A stretch of DNA of 63,743 nt, counting the filler, from Dirinaria sp. TL-2023a (Eukaryota), in assembly GCA_051941275.1 (NCBI GenBank). It is 5 parts of 5 records of this genome, joined end to end, with 100 filler letters (N's around TTAATTAATTAA, not from the genome) between each part and the next. Parts side by side here need not be neighbours in the genome. Positions count along the whole stretch, not along the records: positions 12,801 to 25,497 come from JAVEBF010000747.1; 4 more parts are not named here. One strand, written 5' to 3'. Below the pieces are notes generated by a model. That model ran no database searches. It saw only the letters and a program-made list of their open reading frames with translations, and was not told the origin of the DNA. Both the position numbers and the translations under genes were made by a program. Below, one piece after another: positions 12,466 through 63,388 of this stretch. Position 1 is the stretch's first letter. Each line of letters begins with the position of its first letter.

Positions 12466-12514
12466 CTCTCTCTCTCTCTTTCCCTCTTTTCTCTCTCTCT
12501 CTCTCTCTCTCTCT
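12466..12514. repeat. (CT)n microsatellite in an AT-rich contig end (also poly-A 12257-12278, poly-T 12643-12666)
   Basis: Directly visible simple repeats. Confidence 0.9.
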
Positions 12515-12700
12515 GTCTTGACGCAGTCATCTTGAGTGTATCTCCCCTCACACTGAATTACTCGTAAGAGATAAGTAGCGAACTTTTTACATCGCTCGCG
12601 CATTAGAGAGGGAGTATTGATTAATCAATTAGAATTTCGGAATTTTTTTTTTTTTTTTTTTTTTTTATTTTAATTTACATGAGATGCGTTACTTGGAAAG

Positions 12701-12800
12701 NNNNNNNNNNNNNNNNNNNNNNNNNNNNNNNNNNNNNNNNNNNNTTAATTAATTAANNNNNNNNNNNNNNNNNNNNNNNNNNNNNNNNNNNNNNNNNNNN
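12701..12800. other. Artificial contig linker
   Basis: N44-TTAATTAATTAA-N44; the spacer gives stops in all six frames. Confidence 0.98.
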
Positions 12801-17450: not shown

Positions 17451-18290
17451 AAAAAAAAAAAAAAAGTATCATCAGAAGCTCTAGAGGGTTTATGAAATGT
17501 TTTACTTACAGTTTGGGTTTGTTTTCCGATCTGTTTCCCGATTCGATTTTCGGTTCGTCTCCCGGTTCGGTTGGTCGTTGTACTTGTTCCCTTATCCCGT
17601 TGTTTCGCTTTGCACCGGGCGGATTCTCAGGTGTGGATCCATATCCAGGTTTCAACTCCGCCGGGGTCTACTCACAAGTCTGCGGTAGATGGTCGCGGGG
17701 AGAATTATACTCGGCGGAGCAGACATACCCTTCTCCCCCGCCCGCAGGCGAGGGCACTCGCATTCGTCCAGCACCATATCAGACAGGGAGCAACGTCCCG
17801 GCTCCGGAGGGGTTCCCGTATACCATGGGCGAGGCACAGTTCCCTGCCCCAGGGCCTGGGTCACCGGCCATCTATCTGATGTAGATGGAATCGCGGGTGG
17901 AATTATACTCCTGTGAGCAGACAACCCTTCTCCCCCTCCCGCAGGAGAGGGCACTCAATTGGGTCCGGTGTCCCCACACCGGCTGTCACCGGCCATCTAT
18001 TGACCCACGAACTTGCTTTCGGCCCCGATGCGTCGTATTCGCCTATTTGGCACCTTTGAAAGCCTATTGGTTGTTAGCGAAACTTTTTGGAAGAGGGTTT
18101 TGTACGCGTTTTGGCTTGGGGTTTTCGTAGCGAGGTTGAAGTGGTGATTTGGTTTGTTAGGTGGGTTGGGAGGTGGTTGGTGGATGTTTTGAATAAACTG
18201 AAAAGACTGTATGGCATTAGCGAGGTTCGAACACAGAGCTTCTGATAATTTTTCATAGCAGAATATTGCCAGTTGCGCCATGTTTTTGGG
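17451..18290 (-). ncRNA. Candidate RNA polymerase III structured ncRNA or tRNA-headed SINE-like element
   Basis: Minus-strand A-box TGGCGCAACTGG (18280-18269), B-box GTGTTCGAACCT (18234-18223), two tandem multi-stem domains (18000-17881, 17875-17685), a third hairpin (17664-17615) and a T15 run (17465-17451). Confidence 0.5.
17685..18000 (-). repeat. Tandem duplicated structured unit (191 and 120 nt), each closed by ATAGATGG...CCATCTAC
   Basis: Both copies share the blocks ATAGATGGCCGGTGAC, GAGTGCCCTC.CCTGCGGG.GGGGGAGAAGGGT, TGTCTGCTC....GAGTATAATTC and CCGCGA..CCATCTAC. Confidence 0.93.
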
Positions 18291-18860
18291 ATGTGGAAAT
18301 GAGGTTTTATTAGGAATATTTACGGTGGTTTGCGGAGGGATACAGACAAGTCCAAGGCTGGCGGGATGGGTGGATCGGCATATTATTTGTATGCAGCCAA
18401 TCCCAAATAGCAGCCGCTGCCTATTCTCTGAATAAGGTAGTTGCTGATGGCACTTTTGCTAGTTTCCCTATCATGTTAGAGTACGCAAGCCTGAGAAGGA
18501 CCAGGCTTATATTTCTTGTCAAGACCGGCATATTGGTGTTTAGCACTATAGACGTCTCTGAATATCCTTCAAAAGATAAGCTTATTAGTCCGATGACTGG
18601 TCATTGGAGATGATTTTCAGATACGAGTTATGAAATCTCATGGTGTGGATAAAGAGGATCAAATTCCATTTGTGAGATCCTGTATCAACTTCATAAAATC
18701 AAAGTAAAGTGAGAAGTAATTTCGAGTCAACCAACCTCTGAACTTCTACATGAAGCTTGCCATACGAAAAAATACTCGCAGCACCCTAGATGAACCTTCG
18801 AAGCGCTACCTCAAGCATTATATGCAAATCCTGGGCAGTGAGCTTCAGACCCGCCATGCT

Positions 18861-25497: not shown

Positions 25498-25597
25498 NNN
25501 NNNNNNNNNNNNNNNNNNNNNNNNNNNNNNNNNNNNNNNNNTTAATTAATTAANNNNNNNNNNNNNNNNNNNNNNNNNNNNNNNNNNNNNNNNNNNN
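25498..25597. other. Artificial contig linker
   Basis: N44-TTAATTAATTAA-N44. Confidence 0.98.
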
Positions 25598-25893
25598 AAA
25601 AACAAAAAAACAAAAAAGAAAAAAGCGCGCAAGGCAAAAGTGTCCCTCCTTCAAAGGGTGGAAATGAAAGATCACGATTAAGGTAGATATTTATTTATTT
25701 CGGTAACTTTTTTTTTTTTTGGGATTAATAATAATAATGTACCGTAATGTATCTATTGTTAAACCCCCCTGGGCTTGCAACAATGTACGAGTACAGCAAG
25801 GTTGTTGCACGCAATTTGTTCTTTTCTCTTCTCTTGATATACATAATGATGTACGCAAAGGGGGGGCGATGTTTTCTTTTTTTTGTACATGGT

Positions 25894-38259: not shown

Positions 38260-38359
38260 NNNNNNNNNNNNNNNNNNNNNNNNNNNNNNNNNNNNNNNNN
38301 NNNTTAATTAATTAANNNNNNNNNNNNNNNNNNNNNNNNNNNNNNNNNNNNNNNNNNNN
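38260..38359. other. Artificial contig linker
   Basis: N44-TTAATTAATTAA-N44. Confidence 0.98.
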
Positions 38360-39995: not shown

Positions 39996-41450
39996 TTGGA
40001 CGAATGTCAAAAGAGTGTTGTACGATCTGGCAGGTAATTCATATATTAACGAAGGAAAATCTGAGGATGAAATTATGGCGGACAGTCATCACTTATATGC
40101 CAGCTCGTAAAGAGCCGCACTCAACAGAACTTGAGGGAACCAGGGGAATGGCGATGACTCTTCCTCGATGGGTTGCTCGATTAGGAAGAAAATAGTAAGT
40201 AGATGAGCGTTATTTGCTCAAGTTCGGCGATTGACCGAACCCCACTAACTTCAAATTCTTTCATGCAAGACATGGGAATGTTCCAAGCGGTAACCGACAA
40301 GAGCGGGACTCAGGTTCGAGGTCCTTCATCCAATCGGTTGGACAAGGAGTCACCACATCACAAATGGTACCTCTAGCCCAACCGTTGAAGGCTTGTTCAA
40401 CGCCTCAATCGAACATTTTCAGGGCCCATACTTGGTTGCCTGACTGTTAGTACCCAACAGCAGCTTTCGCTCACCATGTCCGAGCCACATCCGGGCAATG
40501 ACAGAATTGGGTTTTGTTGAATCGTGGCGCCGGATGCTGGGCGCCATACGGCTTCACGGAGGGAACTTTACCTCCACCGGAGAACAATATCCGTCAAGCT
40601 CCGTAGGACACTTCTGAGATGAAGGAATTTGCTCTTTGTGTATCATGATGCAAAAAACCCGAAGAAGATGTCTCGATAGCCCTTCACGAGAGTTAAAAAA
40701 ACACCGAGTGAGGTCAAGTTAAAGAAGGAGCACACAGGCGTGTCTTGTGCTTCTTTTTTGGCTCGCTATCAGACCAAAATCTAGCCAAGCTCCGTAACGG
40801 CATCACCCTTGAGCGTAGTCTCGCAGCCGTGCCGCATAGTCTCAGCTCCTAGATTTTACCAGACCCTCAATTGAATATTTCTCGTGGTATTGGTTGAAGC
40901 TTGATGACTGGCCGAGCCATCAAGATTTCAATTTTGAGTTCTCAATCAGGACACGGTGCAGAGACCGCCTATGCCCTCGAGGTGCTTCTTTGTCTTGGTT
41001 CATCCGTCATCCTTTACACCCTGATCGGAAGCTATTAGAGCAGATGATGCTCCAGCGTTAAATACAGACATCTATCGAGCGTAGTGGCCTGGAAGTTCTG
41101 TCTATGAAGGACGTTGCGACTCGCTTGTATCTGCTAAAAATCGGTGATAGTTCTCAGAATACCAGGCGCAAGGCTTGCACGCGACAGACATAGTTGCTCA
41201 GTGCTTTTTTTTCCTTTCTTTTTTTTAATTTTGTTTTATTTTCTTTATATTGGCATTTATGCAATCATTTTATCTATTTCGAGGGAATTAAGCCTGAACT
41301 GATGCTTTCATATATACGAAGTATTGATCAATTTTTGGCATTTCGTGGATAAAATGTCATCTTTGTTAGACACTCGGATTTTTACAAGCAGCGACAGTCG
41401 GACCAAAGGCTGGGGCTTAGTGGTACATAGTATGCAAGATTAATCGATAC

Positions 41451-41984
41451 ATCGACAGCAATATGTCTTTGACGTGTGCATGTGTGTTGCGAAACCTTGG
41501 TATCCAAAGTTCTTTCTCTCCCCTACATGTCGCATTGGTCACTAAGGTACTTACTGTCGTCCATCAATGTCTTCGTTCTCAACTCGATTTAAGATTCTAA
41601 AAGTCATCCTGTTTCCAGCATCCTTTAACACTTAACGATTTGTCGATTTGACAGTGGCACTATCATGGCGAATCGATCCATCGACATTTCGTGAAATCAT
41701 TATTGTGCTAAAATCTCATTCTTTCGCTAGCGCTAGAGAGAAGCGACTACATTGAATTCTGAGACAGCAAAAGATCGAAGAAAATTTTTCTTGATAGATG
41801 GAAAGAATTGTTGCTACTAAACGGGAGGGATGGGACGGCAGTTATATTTCTCAAAAAAAAATTTGTCTTGCAGACTGCAGATGTAGGGAAGGGTATAAAT
41901 TCGAGATGCCAAGGTTTCGCAACACACATGCACACGTCAACTGTCTTCGATGTCAACTTCGAATCAACATGCCATGCTGTCGAT
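41451..41984. mobile_element. Inverted-repeat-bounded non-coding element (MITE/foldback-like)
   Basis: Perfect 32-bp inverted repeat 41469-41500 / 41909-41940. Extra inverted matches at 41521-41528 / 41881-41888 and 41451-41460 / 41975-41984. Confidence 0.55.
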
Positions 41985-42152
41985 CGCTGCTGGCAATCGA
42001 AGTAAAAGCCGACAAAGGCCGAGGGTGAGGCTGAAGTGTGCCCTGTACGGCTGTGTGGCTGGCGGCGCTACAGCCTGATCTGTCGCTGTCGCGAAGCCCA
42101 AGTACTTGTACCTTACTCATGAGCTCTTTTGTCTTTGTCTTGACTCGCCATC

Positions 42153-45652: not shown

Positions 45653-46432
45653 TGAAGCCTGCCACTCCAAGCGACTCCTCTCTCACAATCTTTCCAACAC
45701 CCTCAACCTACTTTAACGGTTTGCCTATTTGATGATGGCACGTTCGTGGTGAATCAGTCCATCGTCATCTCGTGAAATCATCGTTGCGTGAAACTGGCAC
45801 TCTGTCAGAGCACGAGAGATCGATAGACTTAAGCCCGAGGCATCAAAGAGATCGGATGCATTATCACGCTATAATGAGTAGTAGTTAGTGGGGAAGGGTG
45901 GTGGGCCAGTAGAGTAGGGTGGTGTGGCGGCAGTGAGATCCTTGATTTAACATGTGATAGCAGATATGTTGTTGGAACTGATTGACTGTGCAATTAATAT
46001 CTATCAATGTGGGCTGCTTCTCTACAGTTGCAATAGTACTGAGATAGGTACTGAAGCGTCAACACATGCAACAATTCCTTCATTGTAACATTCCCAACGA
46101 TGCTGTCTCGCTAAAGAAGCCTTAGCGTGTGCGCTAGTGTGGCACTAAGGGCTCGGGCGCGCCCGCTTGATACAAAGCGAGCACTACCTTAGTAACACGC
46201 ACACAACCTTCTTTCCTTTCCTCTGCAACAAGACCATATGTGAAATCGACACCTGCACACTACTTACTGTGGTCTTCTTTTTCTCTTGATCCCTGTCGCC
46301 GGGCGTTTTCTGGGGTCCCTTTGAGGTCCCAGTTACTCCGGATCCTGAGCTTTGTCTCAAGCGGTGTGGGTTTTTCAAATCCCATCGCGTTTCTCCACCG
46401 CGTCTTTGGCGGGTGGATTATAAAACCACAAT

Positions 46433-47893
46433 ATGTCTACTCACACAAACCCTACTCCCCCGCAGGGGAATTCCGTGGAGCTCGCAGTCCTGAAATACAA
46501 GCTGGAGCGGGAGACGAGAAGGGCTAATCGAGCCGAAGAAGGAGCCAAGCGATTCGAAGAGGACCTGCGAGCGCTCGAATCTGACCATGAGCGTTTGGTC
46601 TCTCAAGGTGCCCTATCGTCCGAGAGGATCACTGAGCTCGAAATCGAGCGAGACCAAGCCGTGGCCGAGAAAGAAAAGGCATTGGTCGAAAAAGAAAAGA
46701 CCATCGCTGACAAAGAGAGCGCAATCGCAGAGAAAGAAAGCGCGTTGGCCGAGAAAGAGAGCGCGTTGCCCTCACTGAGAAAGGAGAACGGCGAACCGAG
46801 AGCCAAGTTAACCCGGTTCCAAGAGACCTCTCTCACGATCGAGCGCCGTCTCAAGCAGAAGTCAGCAAGTGTTAGTCAAGCACTCGATCACATGAAGGCA
46901 CTAGTCGGCCATATGAATGCACTAGGCCCCCATTTTCTCACAATTCAGGACCAGGAACGGGACATCATATCACATTTGCACCGTATGCATGGTGCAGCTT
47001 CCGACCTCGACTGGGCGAACGATCAAGAGGGAAATACCAGCAGTCCGCCTAACAACCCAGAGACGAACTTACCTGCTGACGTAGACAGGGACAATGAGCA
47101 GGTCTTTGGCTCTGGGGGGCCTATGATGGATGATGATCATACCACGCCCGCTGCGTCACTTCCCCATATTCAAGACCTGAGTCTCTCGGCCAAGGACGGT
47201 AAACGTCCAGCAGCCGACCCTCCAGGGCCGAAGGGGGGGAATGTAAATAAGAAACAAAGGATGGAGCAGGGCTCGAAGAAATCAGAGGAATTAGCCAAGG
47301 AAAAGCCAACGTTCGCCGAGGCTCTGCAACAGAGACCTAAGAAGCCGACGCCCTTCTCAATACTTTCTGTGAAATTGACTCCAGAGGACATAGAACGGAG
47401 GAATAGAATAAGAGAATTCCTGCGAAAGCGAGAAGAAGGTCCTATATTCCCCGACGACGAAGAGACAGCTGACACGCAGCCGCAGCAACCAGAGAGCGAA
47501 CAGCAGGTCCAGAGCATTGTCGAACAGGAACCGATCACGGCGGCGCAGACCTCGAGCCAGCAAAGCCCCCGAGATCAGGGCTCTCACCCCACTGGTGGGT
47601 CAGAGCAGTAAGCTTGGAGTACGGTGGCAGCTCGAAAGCCCCAGAAGGAGGTCGAAAATGTTGATACGCCAAAGAACCCGAGGGTCTTGCGTGTCAAGCG
47701 TCCTTCTGAACAAGACAAGCCGGAGCAAAAAGCCACCACAGCACCAGCACAGCCTTCGACGCAGCAGGCGGAGGCTCCATCGGCCTCCCAAGCACCTTCG
47801 GAGAGTGAAGACACCATGGCAGGCCCGGGCGGCGGCCGGCGTGCTAAGATCCGAAAGAAGAACTCATCGACTAGGAGAGGGAGAGGGAGATGA
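46433..47893 (+). CDS. Orphan coiled-coil / disordered protein; in-frame TAA at 47609-47611 (stop codon or nonsense mutation)
   Basis: 392-aa ORF with heptad EKEKAL/EKESAL repeats. The same frame stays open after the TAA up to 47893. Confidence 0.6.
46666..46770 (+). repeat. Coding 21-bp minisatellite (5 heptads EKE[K/S]xxx)
   Basis: Five 21-bp units, each beginning GA(G/A/C)AAAGA and the last two nearly identical (GAGAAAGARAGCGCGTTG). Confidence 0.85.
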
Positions 47894-51003: not shown

Positions 51004-51103
51004 NNNNNNNNNNNNNNNNNNNNNNNNNNNNNNNNNNNNNNNNNNNNTTAATTAATTAANNNNNNNNNNNNNNNNNNNNNNNNNNNNNNNNNNNNNNNNN
51101 NNN
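51004..51103. other. Artificial contig linker
   Basis: N44-TTAATTAATTAA-N44. Confidence 0.98.
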
Positions 51104-61368: not shown

Positions 61369-63388
61369 TCAGCCCTTCTTGCGCCTTTTAGGGGTCCTCT
61401 CCATAGTGTTCTGTTCTGGAACATCTTTTTCTGAACTCGCATGCTCGCCTTGTTCAATAGATTCATTAGGTCGCTTTCGAATGCCACCCATCTCGCCCAA
61501 TGCTCCTTTCCGGCCCTCGACGCCTTGGGGAGCATCCTTGTCTTGATTTTCAACGACTGGCGGAGGCGTATACCATGGAAGCTTGCCTCGTAGAAAATCA
61601 CTCAGAACCATTCTCGCTACTCCACTTACGTCTGGCTCTCCGCCCTTGAGTAGTCGGCCCCCTTTTCTGGCCAGCATCTCCAAGAATTCCGCGGAGGTAC
61701 TAGCACCTTTTATGTCATACGTACGTTCGATATGCTGTGGTTTAGTCCTCTCCAGAACAGCATCAATGTATTGCTCCGGATTCTCCAGCTTCTCAACCCT
61801 AACCACGCCTCTAAGCAGAATATCTTGAGGAGTGTCCTCGTTACTTGGTGGAACTACTCCCGGACAGTCGATCAGGTATATTCGTTTCATAAGCGTTATG
61901 TACTGCCAAACCTTCGTAGAACCTGGTATAGGCTCCACGCTACAGACCTTCTTTTTGCGCAAGGTATTGATGATTGAAGATTTCCCTGTGTTCGGATAAC
62001 CTATCATTCCCACGGATATTTGTTTGCGATTAGAGTGCAGAGAGCTGAATTGTCGTAAAAGCTGTATCAGGGAACCTTTGCCGAAGGAATTTGTGATAGA
62101 AGCGTGGAAAGCAAGTGTAGGGTACTCTTTAGAGAGAGCACGCACCCATGAAGCCTGCGATCGATATTAGAAGCCACTTCGACCTCAGAGTTAAGATTCG
62201 TGGCATGTATGAAGCATTACTAAGAAAGCCGCCACGTAGCTACTGCTAGTGCAGTAGAGGAGGCATTCAACTCAAACGCAGCATCTCCAGATCCTGTTCG
62301 ACTGACTCCCATAACGGAGAGCCTGTCTACCCCAGGCCTAGACCAAGAGTGGCGGATGAGGAATCAATCTACCCAGGCTGTAACAGATCACCATCCATGA
62401 AACAATGCAAGAAAATGCGGGAAGGAGTCTTGACTTAGCAAGGGGGATAGAAGAGACAGGAGTTAGGAAAGGAGCTCCTTGACTTACAGCAACTCCGGTA
62501 GGGACGAGATCGCACTTGTTGAGGACAAAAACTACATGCTTATGCGATGCTTCTTCTCGAATGTATTTCTCGATACTTCTGCAACGCGTTCCAATCGGGT
62601 CTCGAGCGTCCAGGACATGTATTACCACATCTGAAGAGTCGATGACTTTATAAAGCTCGTTCCATATGCGCTTGCTCTGCCCCTTGGAAAAGATTGGTTC
62701 GATAGCAGTAGAGACCACAGGATCCTCCTCCACTGCTTCCTCAATCGGCTCTTCGGTAGCAATATTCCCACTGAGCAGCTTCGCTTGTTCAAGGCGATCG
62801 CGGTAGGTATCGTGCATCTTGACCGTTTCCCCTGCCAAGTCTTCGAGTGATGCAACGCTGAGCTTCACCCGCTTCCTCTGCGCTTTTGGTCCAAAAGTAT
62901 CATTAAACGGGGCAGCCTCGACCTGCATCTTTGCTTGGTGCTCCTTGATCCCATTCTTTCCCTGCCCATCCCGAACAAGACTCATTGGTAGCTTATTCGA
63001 CTTTAGCAAGACCTGGTAAGGATCTGACGCTCGGTCTGCCATGGCCTCCCGAAATGAAGCTAGGGCGTCTTGAGAAATGACCCGCGTGTTGCCAAACCAT
63101 TTTCTGTTCGGCTCGACTCTAGCCTTTGGCTTTTCCCTAGATTGAAAGGAGGCGGCTTTGGTGATCTTCCCATCTGCATTACGTTGGGCATCGCCACCCT
63201 TGAACATATTCAGCGTCTTGGCTTTCTTCGCCGACCTGCAATTGTGTGAGCAAGGCCATCTCCAGCACCATTGTCATAAAAGTTTCCCACCGATAGAAGT
63301 TCTCGCCCTTCGTCCTGACATTGCTCATACCGTCCCCTGGCTTCCCCTGCTTCTCTCTGCGAGTCTTCTCCTTCTTTCCGGTACCCAT
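61369..63388 (-). CDS. NOG2: Nucleolar/nuclear pre-60S GTPase Nog2 (introns 63290-63236 and 62487-62155)
   Basis: [52 protein letters not shown]: a circularly permuted GTPase. Confidence 0.96.
62203..62450 (-). ncRNA. snR191: Intronic H/ACA snoRNA, snR191/U19 (SNORA74)-like
   Basis: Inside a 333-nt NOG2 intron. Guide halves AGTCA/GTTAC and GAGT/TAGT are complementary to LSU rRNA helix 69 (GUAACUAUGACUC). ACA box at 62208-62206, 14 nt after the start of TAGT. Confidence 0.82.

Follow-up and report, generated by a model that had tools for sequence, protein, structure and literature searches.

A candidate 0.8-kb structured RNA with RNA polymerase III-type promoter elements beside SMC5 in a lichen fungus

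Introduction

According to the available part of PMC5356446, SCR1 (the 7SL RNA of the signal recognition particle, SRP) is the longest product of RNA polymerase III (Pol III) in Saccharomyces cerevisiae and comes from a long gene with A- and B-boxes within the transcribed 5' region. These boxes are inside the mature RNA and the boxes of RPR1 and SNR52 are in leaders (PMC5356446, same part). The RPR1 and SNR52 leaders could not be arranged as tRNA-like structures, as stated in the available part of PMC2566860. A locus comparable to these genes is described here from Dirinaria sp. TL-2023a, a lichen fungus represented by a metagenome-assembled genome (MAG). The analysed window comprised five contigs of about 12.7 kb each, 63.7 kb in total. 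The candidate element was found at 17451-18290 on the minus strand of the contig at 12801-25497 (12,697 nt), between genes for a GNAT acetyltransferase and SMC5. The ends predicted from its promoter and terminator motifs pair together, closing a rod around a duplicated, conserved core. On the sequence evidence the best single reading is a structured minus-strand RNA, which was given somewhat better than an even chance.

SCR1 RNA is 522 nt long. Pairing of its 5' and 3' parts makes a long rod that ends in branched domains, and the predicted fold of the candidate has the same form. Unlike SCR1, the candidate had no Rfam SRP match at E<=10 and no SRP helix-8 or Alu motifs were recognised in it. 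Its distal domains are paralogous to each other and its length is about 830 nt. As in RPR1 and SNR52, boxes that lie outside a tRNA fold precede a structured RNA, which is followed by an oligo-T terminator. The RPR1 and SNR52 boxes are in a leader that is removed, whereas at least the B-box of the candidate would stay in the folded RNA because the 5' arm of its terminal helix lies between the boxes. The body of the candidate matched neither RNase P RNA nor a small nucleolar RNA in Rfam, unlike RPR1 and SNR52.

Predicted terminal helix and arm pairing

The terminal helix comprises 16 bp on the minus strand, two of them G.U pairs. Its 5' arm, AUUAUCAGAAGCUCUG (18249-18234), lies between the A- and B-boxes and its 3' arm, UAGAGCUUCUGAUGAU (17483-17468, 16 nt), ends 2 nt before a run of 15 T (T15). 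The predicted pair probability was above 0.9 for 14 bp. In the DNA this is an inverted repeat of 17468-17482 and 18235-18249 with matches at 14 of 15 positions. The alignment score of the helix was reached by 1 of 300 shuffles.

Beyond the terminal helix, nested pairing joins the 5' arm (18250-18004) to the 3' arm (17680-17467). The energy gained by arm-arm pairing was -42.7 kcal/mol, compared to -13.8 ± 4.5 kcal/mol in 100 dinucleotide shuffles, none of which reached it (z -6.5). With the terminal helix removed the gain was -27.5 compared to -12.7 ± 5.1 kcal/mol (z -2.9; 0/100). The corresponding z values on the plus strand were -0.35 with the terminal helix and +1.04 without it. Real sequence of the same geometry was used as a further control (80 places on both strands) and 0/160 reached the observed gain, with a mean of -11.6 and a minimum of -38.9 kcal/mol. 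On the minus strand each arm by itself was less stable than its shuffles (z +1.3 for both). For the whole 840 nt the minus strand had a folding z of -2.77, compared to +0.07 for the plus strand (20 shuffles each). Three helices carry G.U pairs on the minus strand which are A.C mismatches on the plus strand.

The 5' arm includes a G-poor, C/A-rich linker (18199-18061, minus strand; A 39%, C 37%, G 7%, T 17%) which alone is mostly unpaired. It holds the helix strand 18083-18076, which forms a perfect 8-bp helix with AGCGAAAC (17609-17602). This partner is in the A-rich, T-poor 3' arm (17609-17484, minus strand), and base composition over 17609-17483 is A 45%, C 24%, G 20% and T 11%. The inner 5' arm next to the core (18060-18004, minus strand) is predicted to pair with 17680-17618.

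A long decayed inverted repeat, or foldback element, was also considered for the arms. Its global arm alignment score was reached by 294 of 300 shuffles. There is no DNA-level arm similarity beyond 15 bp, and the candidate is therefore not a decayed foldback repeat.

The strongest pairing among the genomic controls (-38.9 kcal/mol) was at about 41205-42063. It is presumably due to pairing of two T8 runs (41205 and 41219) with an A9 run (41853). At 17509-17484 on the minus strand, directly ahead of the terminal-helix 3' arm, GUAAGU (17509-17504) is followed 20 nt on by CUCUAG. The pair is splice-site-like, with a spacing too short for a normal fungal intron. It is reminiscent of the spliceosomal 3'-end processing of fungal telomerase RNAs; no template is present here.

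Putative promoter elements and terminator

The sequence-only reading had listed an A-box, a B-box, a linker, a GC-rich core, a tail and T15 on the minus strand between GNAT and SMC5, and each was present. The A-box-like sequence TGGCGCAACTGG (18280-18269, minus strand) includes the ATG (18281-18279) of a 94-codon open reading frame (ORF). Its part TGGCGCAACTG (18280-18270) fits the consensus TRGYnnAnnnG and also the stricter T[AG]GC..A.{2,3}GG. The B-box-like sequence is GTGTTCGAACCT (18234-18223, minus strand), of which the core GTTCGAACC (18232-18224) fits GWTCRAnnC. Both consensus sequences are those given in the available part of PMC2566860. The core is separated from the 12-nt A-box by 36 nt. 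The gap between the A-box and the 12-nt B-box is 34 nt, which is inside the range of 31-93 nt given for S. cerevisiae tRNA genes in the available part of PMC5356446.

A strict pair was defined as T[AG]GC..A.{2,3}GG followed by GTTCGA..C with box starts 30-70 nt apart. It occurred once in the window, at this locus, compared to 0.06 expected, and at least one such pair occurred in 6% of 200 Markov surrogates. Two TATA-like, AT-rich elements, TAAATATT (18322-18315) and TAATAAAA (18312-18305), are on the minus strand about 20-30 nt upstream of the predicted start and may be a putative TFIIIB site. The head had been called tRNA-like. The two boxes stood and the tRNA fold did not, as ARAGORN reported none at its default threshold or with the threshold set to 95% or 80%. 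Only when this was set to 60% was a very poor 'Phe' cloverleaf returned, at 18286-18209 with 4/7 acceptor pairs.

T15 (17465-17451, minus strand) is the putative Pol III terminator and begins 2 nt after the terminal helix. It is one of only six A or T runs of at least 10 in the window. The sole run of at least four T inside the body is T4 (18204-18201) within CTTTTC (18205-18200, minus strand). The caution that T4 could terminate transcription early stands, T4 being at the terminator position of a tRNA gene. In yeast in vivo, effective Pol III termination needs more than 6 U, and the enzyme continues through U-poor sequence (PMC4937561, available part). Transcription in S. cerevisiae starts 10-12 nt before the mature tRNA 5' end, itself 7 nt before the A-box (PMC5356446, available part). 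Applied to the candidate, these yeast rules would place the start near 18297-18299 and make T4 a leaky and T15 the decisive stop. The body is 18% U. Depletion of T runs as a Pol III signature was rejected since base composition suffices, with one internal run of at least four T seen and 0.79 expected.

Duplicated core

The core (18003-17610) is 58-64% GC. It had been described as three folded domains, and two of these (18000-17881 and 17875-17685) proved to be paralogues of each other. Both domains open with AUAGAUGGCCGGUGAC and close with CCAUCUAC, and these form the closing stem. In domain 1 (18000-17881, minus strand) the 7-bp closing stem UAGAUGG/CCAUCUA surrounds three hairpins, namely CCGGUGU-GGGG-ACACCGG, CCCUCUCC-UGCG-GGAGGGGG and UGCUC-ACAG-GAGUA. 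Domain 2 (17875-17685, minus strand) has the same closing stem and module. The variable hairpin is 7 bp in domain 1 and is replaced by one of about 75 nt in domain 2.

The module common to both domains consists of CCCUCNCC-UGCG-GGNGGGGG, UGCUC-NNNN-GAGUA and the invariant GAGUAUAAUUC. The two modules are 90% identical, with 10 differing positions and 2 indels in 88 columns. The only helix change between them is one compensated pair, from U-A to G-C in the UGCG hairpin of domain 2. The loop of the third hairpin differs at 4/4 positions and its stem is intact. The loop C(UGCG)G is of the UNCG type, and hence presumably stable, on the minus strand only. The third GC-rich segment (17684-17610, minus strand) can be read as a separate hairpin (CCGGCGGA...UCCGCCCGG) or as the 3' strand of the inner rod.

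A covariance model of the duplicated module gave a best non-self match of 13.8 bits at 46398-46479 (minus strand) on another contig, and this was judged to be chance. The match shares, in order, CCUGCGGG, GGAG-AGGGUU and UAUAAU-CCACCCGC. It was rejected because it overlaps both the TATA box and the start codon of a coiled-coil ORF on the plus strand (46424-47611), for which there is no Pfam family.

Comparison with a related metagenome contig

One public sequencing run matched part of the stretch (0.09 share of words). This run is a DNA metagenome and is silent on expression. It contained a single 330-nt contig which aligned to 17830-18144 with about 93% identity, 13 substitutions and 6 gap letters. 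The count was limited to listed positions, which excludes those too close to the contig ends. The core (17881-18003, which includes domain 1) had 1 substitution in 123 positions, and the 5' arm had 9 in 99 (Fisher p 0.006). This contig lacks 5 nt of the inter-domain hinge and both closing stems persist.

Other searches for relatives used the hairpin motif. Metagenome contigs scanned with GTCTGCTC-N3-6-GAGTATAATTC gave seven loci, and all seven were chance by blastn. The hairpin motif scan gave 0 matches in genome contigs and 0 in viral contigs.

Known RNA families

The window had no match at the gathering score to the Rfam 15 covariance models, among them those of RNase P/MRP, SRP, snRNAs, U3, snoRNAs, ribozymes and riboswitches. 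This agrees with the earlier statement that motifs of RNase P/MRP, SRP, spliceosomal snRNAs and U3 could not be found. At E<=10 the only matches were plus-strand chance matches to snR75 (15 bits) and mir-921 (14.7 bits). The earlier statement that a TTAGGG-type template is lacking also held, as no (CCCTAA)n word of at least 7 nt occurred on either strand of 17451-18290. TTAGGG telomeres were assumed for the host fungus.

The telomerase RNA (TER) of Pezizomycotina is like the candidate in being large, structured, variable between lineages and not represented in Rfam. Both have a single-stranded stretch rich in C and A and pairing between the 5' and 3' parts. The GUAAGU near the 3' end of the candidate is a further TER-like feature. 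These TERs are reportedly Pol II transcripts of 1.3-2.4 kb. Unlike TER, the candidate has no template, and its C/A stretch is the most variable part in the related contig. An H/ACA reading, with ACAUCA in the hinge between the domains, was rejected because the related contig deletes 5 nt of the hinge. A hammerhead or C/D-box reading was also rejected: the terminal helix takes up all of the CUGAUGA near the 3' end, and there was no Rfam match. Listings and abstracts in the literature contained nothing on such an RNA in fungi or lichens.

Genomic context

SMC5 is at 22713-18864 on the minus strand, as placed by mapping the NCBI protein onto the window. The window ORF is 100% identical to the NCBI protein of Dirinaria sp. 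TL-2023a and the next relative is 63% identical. On the plus strand the ORF of the GNAT acetyltransferase (Pfam Acetyltransf_3, E 7e-17) extends to 17222, so the two genes converge. The gap between them is 1.64 kb and the candidate occupies most of it, on the SMC5 strand and 570 nt downstream of the SMC5 stop codon. In the 3' flank of SMC5, on the opposite strand (18605-18685, plus), the snR75-like C/D box match had 15 bits (E 4.6), below the gathering score of 40, and is probably chance.

The contigs of the window are joined by spacers of the form N44-TTAATTAATTAA-N44 at 12701-12800, 25498-25597, 38260-38359 and 51004-51103. As five contigs were joined, features on separate contigs are not neighbours. 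At the end of the first contig (12257-12666, plus strand) an A22 run and a T24 run, separated by about 390 nt, enclose a (CT)n microsatellite at 12470-12515. A similar pair, T13 and A12, is at 25708 and 26023. The sole (CCCTAA)n-type word of at least 9 nt in the window is AACCCTAACC (61795-61804, plus strand); such a 10-mer is at about chance level.

Discussion

A folded minus-strand RNA was favored because of the terminal helix, the arm-arm pairing, the paralogous domains and the conservation of the core in the related contig. The sequence-only reading had proposed an undescribed structured Pol III RNA or a short interspersed nuclear element (SINE) carrying an RNA module. Of this the folded minus-strand RNA with ends predicted by the boxes and T15 was retained and the SINE variant was not. 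That the candidate is a non-coding RNA (ncRNA) gene of about 0.8 kb made by Pol III is a tentative identification from sequence, placed below an even chance, with Pol III as the more likely polymerase.

Such a gene would be an independent minus-strand ncRNA gene of about 0.8 kb running from roughly 18297 to T15 in the GNAT-SMC5 gap. TFIIIC would bind the tRNA-type A- and B-boxes at its 5' end and TFIIIB the AT-rich stretch upstream. Pol III would start about 17-19 nt before the A-box, pass the weak T4 and the U-poor body and stop in T15. The RNA would be closed by the 16-bp helix between the inter-box segment and the 16 nt that precede the U-tail. An interrupted rod would be zipped up from the G-poor 5' arm and the A-rich 3' arm. 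At its far end would be two paralogous four-way-junction domains, each with a C(UGCG)G-capped hairpin and the invariant GAGUAUAAUUC. It would most likely serve as a scaffold in a ribonucleoprotein, holding either one protein in two copies or a pair of related proteins, and La would bind the U-tail.

A number of results weigh against this reading. The looser published consensus gave 4 A/B pairs in the window compared to 2.5 expected, so the boxes alone are not beyond chance and it is their position that counts. The head lacks a tRNA fold, with none found by ARAGORN in the window and no Rfam tRNA match at E<=10. Most transcripts could stop at T4, with a length of about 95 nt. A runs outnumber T runs here, and the same was found on the SMC5 coding strand. 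To our knowledge no Pol III product is as long as the 830 nt or so of the candidate. The core alone had no unusual stability (minus strand z -1.12, plus strand z -1.87). The comparison of the two modules amounts to a single compensatory event, and its shuffle control was uninformative (252/500). In the related contig six of the nine 5'-arm substitutions are in predicted rod helices. Three of the six, exchanges between C and U opposite G, keep or improve the pair. The other three would break it unless compensated in the 3' arm, which is beyond the contig. In the inner 5' arm (18004-18060), 3/5 substitutions in predicted helices would break pairs. The contig could itself be a paralogous repeat copy instead of an orthologue. 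No homologue was found in the contig scans besides this near-identical 330-nt contig. No RNA run was among the public sequencing runs matching the stretch.

The same folded minus-strand RNA may instead be made by Pol II, as a lineage-specific long non-coding RNA or a structured extension of the SMC5 3' untranslated region (UTR), with the A/B boxes arising by chance or left over from a dead tRNA gene terminated at T4. The place of the candidate on the SMC5 strand 570 nt past the stop codon agrees with this, as do a length that is long for Pol III, TATA-like elements that suit either polymerase, loose A/B pairs expected by chance and an asymmetry of A runs over T runs as on a Pol II sense strand. 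T4 at the tRNA-terminator position and the poor cloverleaf at 60% agree with a dead tRNA gene. It would, however, make coincidences of the unique strict pair that straddles the 5' arm of the terminal helix and of T15 placed 2 nt past the 3' arm, and would need a 3' UTR of 1.4 kb, which is long for a fungal gene. Transcription by Pol II is unlikely on this balance. Slightly less probable is that there is no functional RNA and the locus is intergenic DNA with a tandemly duplicated GC-rich palindromic segment, its motifs being accidental or palindromes bound by protein at the DNA level. Against this, the locus has the 3' end of a gene on either side, a position in which neither promoters nor enhancers are expected. 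Inert DNA would also leave the arm-arm complementarity as an outlier among 100 shuffles and 160 genomic controls, and it does not account for arms that avoid self-folding on the minus strand only or for a core significantly less substituted than its flank in the related contig. It is in keeping with the unremarkable folding energy of the core, the one compensatory pair, the lack of deep conservation in the metagenome, genome and viral contig scans and the lack of an RNA run among the matching runs. Most of the arm complementarity is Watson-Crick and thus present on both strands (74/79 arm pairs are not G.U), and the core has many CGG/CCG triplets, which we assume could serve zinc-cluster transcription factors.

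A relic of a mobile element is improbable to a greater degree. It would be either a non-autonomous DNA transposon like a miniature inverted-repeat transposable element (MITE), bounded by the inverted repeat, or a tRNA-derived SINE whose Pol III transcript ends at a flanking T run. MITEs share with the candidate a terminal inverted repeat of 15-16 bp, a length below 1 kb, the lack of a protein and the capacity of the whole element to fold back. SINEs share with it an A/B head, an unrelated body, an A-rich 3' part and termination at a T run. The related contig spans the element only and not the flanking genes, though the run was chosen through this stretch. Unlike both, the candidate has no target-site duplication of at least 8 nt, either as a flanking direct repeat (18360-18250 and 17540-17400 share no direct k-mer of at least 8 nt) or beside the inverted repeat. 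No second copy was found in the five contigs, a test of low power in the other 51 kb or so of the window. Its body is 58-64% GC and closed by long-range pairing, the pairing continues beyond the ends with no inverted-repeat similarity in the DNA past 15 bp, and no transposase or LINE-like 3' end was seen. The 3' end on the strand of the boxes is T15 and not an A-tail. These points gave no support to the SINE with an RNA module that had been proposed. Least probable is a small protein gene consisting of the 94-codon ORF (18281-17997, minus strand; ATG context AACATGG) with the core as a structured 3' UTR. The 94 codons are open, a TATA-like element is upstream and the changes in the related contig are 4 synonymous to 5 non-synonymous in this frame compared to 2:7 and 1:8 in the others. 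That contig, however, has a 1-nt deletion inside the ORF at 18009, and the ORF region is its most diverged part (9/99). The whole ORF would pair with the 3' arm. No Pfam family was found for seven of the eight ORFs of the region and the eighth had a sub-threshold match to LEA_3a (E 0.12), with GNAT as the positive control. No homologue of 51-165 aa was found in 5.8 billion clusters, from which the MAG's own annotation is also absent. The 94-aa and 147-aa ORFs had no homologues, and a 100-aa core ORF had two matches among 1.84 billion representatives, both to multi-stretch proteins (20 and 9 matched stretches), which were read as low-complexity. Chance ORFs are favored because of the C/A-rich composition with few stops.

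If the candidate is a transposon relic or inert DNA it is ordinary. A structured minus-strand RNA made by Pol III would be of wider interest. That it represents an undescribed family of near-kilobase structured Pol III RNAs in lichen-forming fungi, acting as two-site protein scaffolds, is doubtful on sequence evidence. If true, it would be the longest natural Pol III product known and would extend fungal Pol III RNAs well beyond the SRP RNA of about 0.5 kb. Pol III is held to make short RNAs only, and a 0.8-kb product of a tRNA-type promoter would stretch that rule. It would also be a new RNA family from lichen fungi, whose non-coding RNAs are essentially unexplored.

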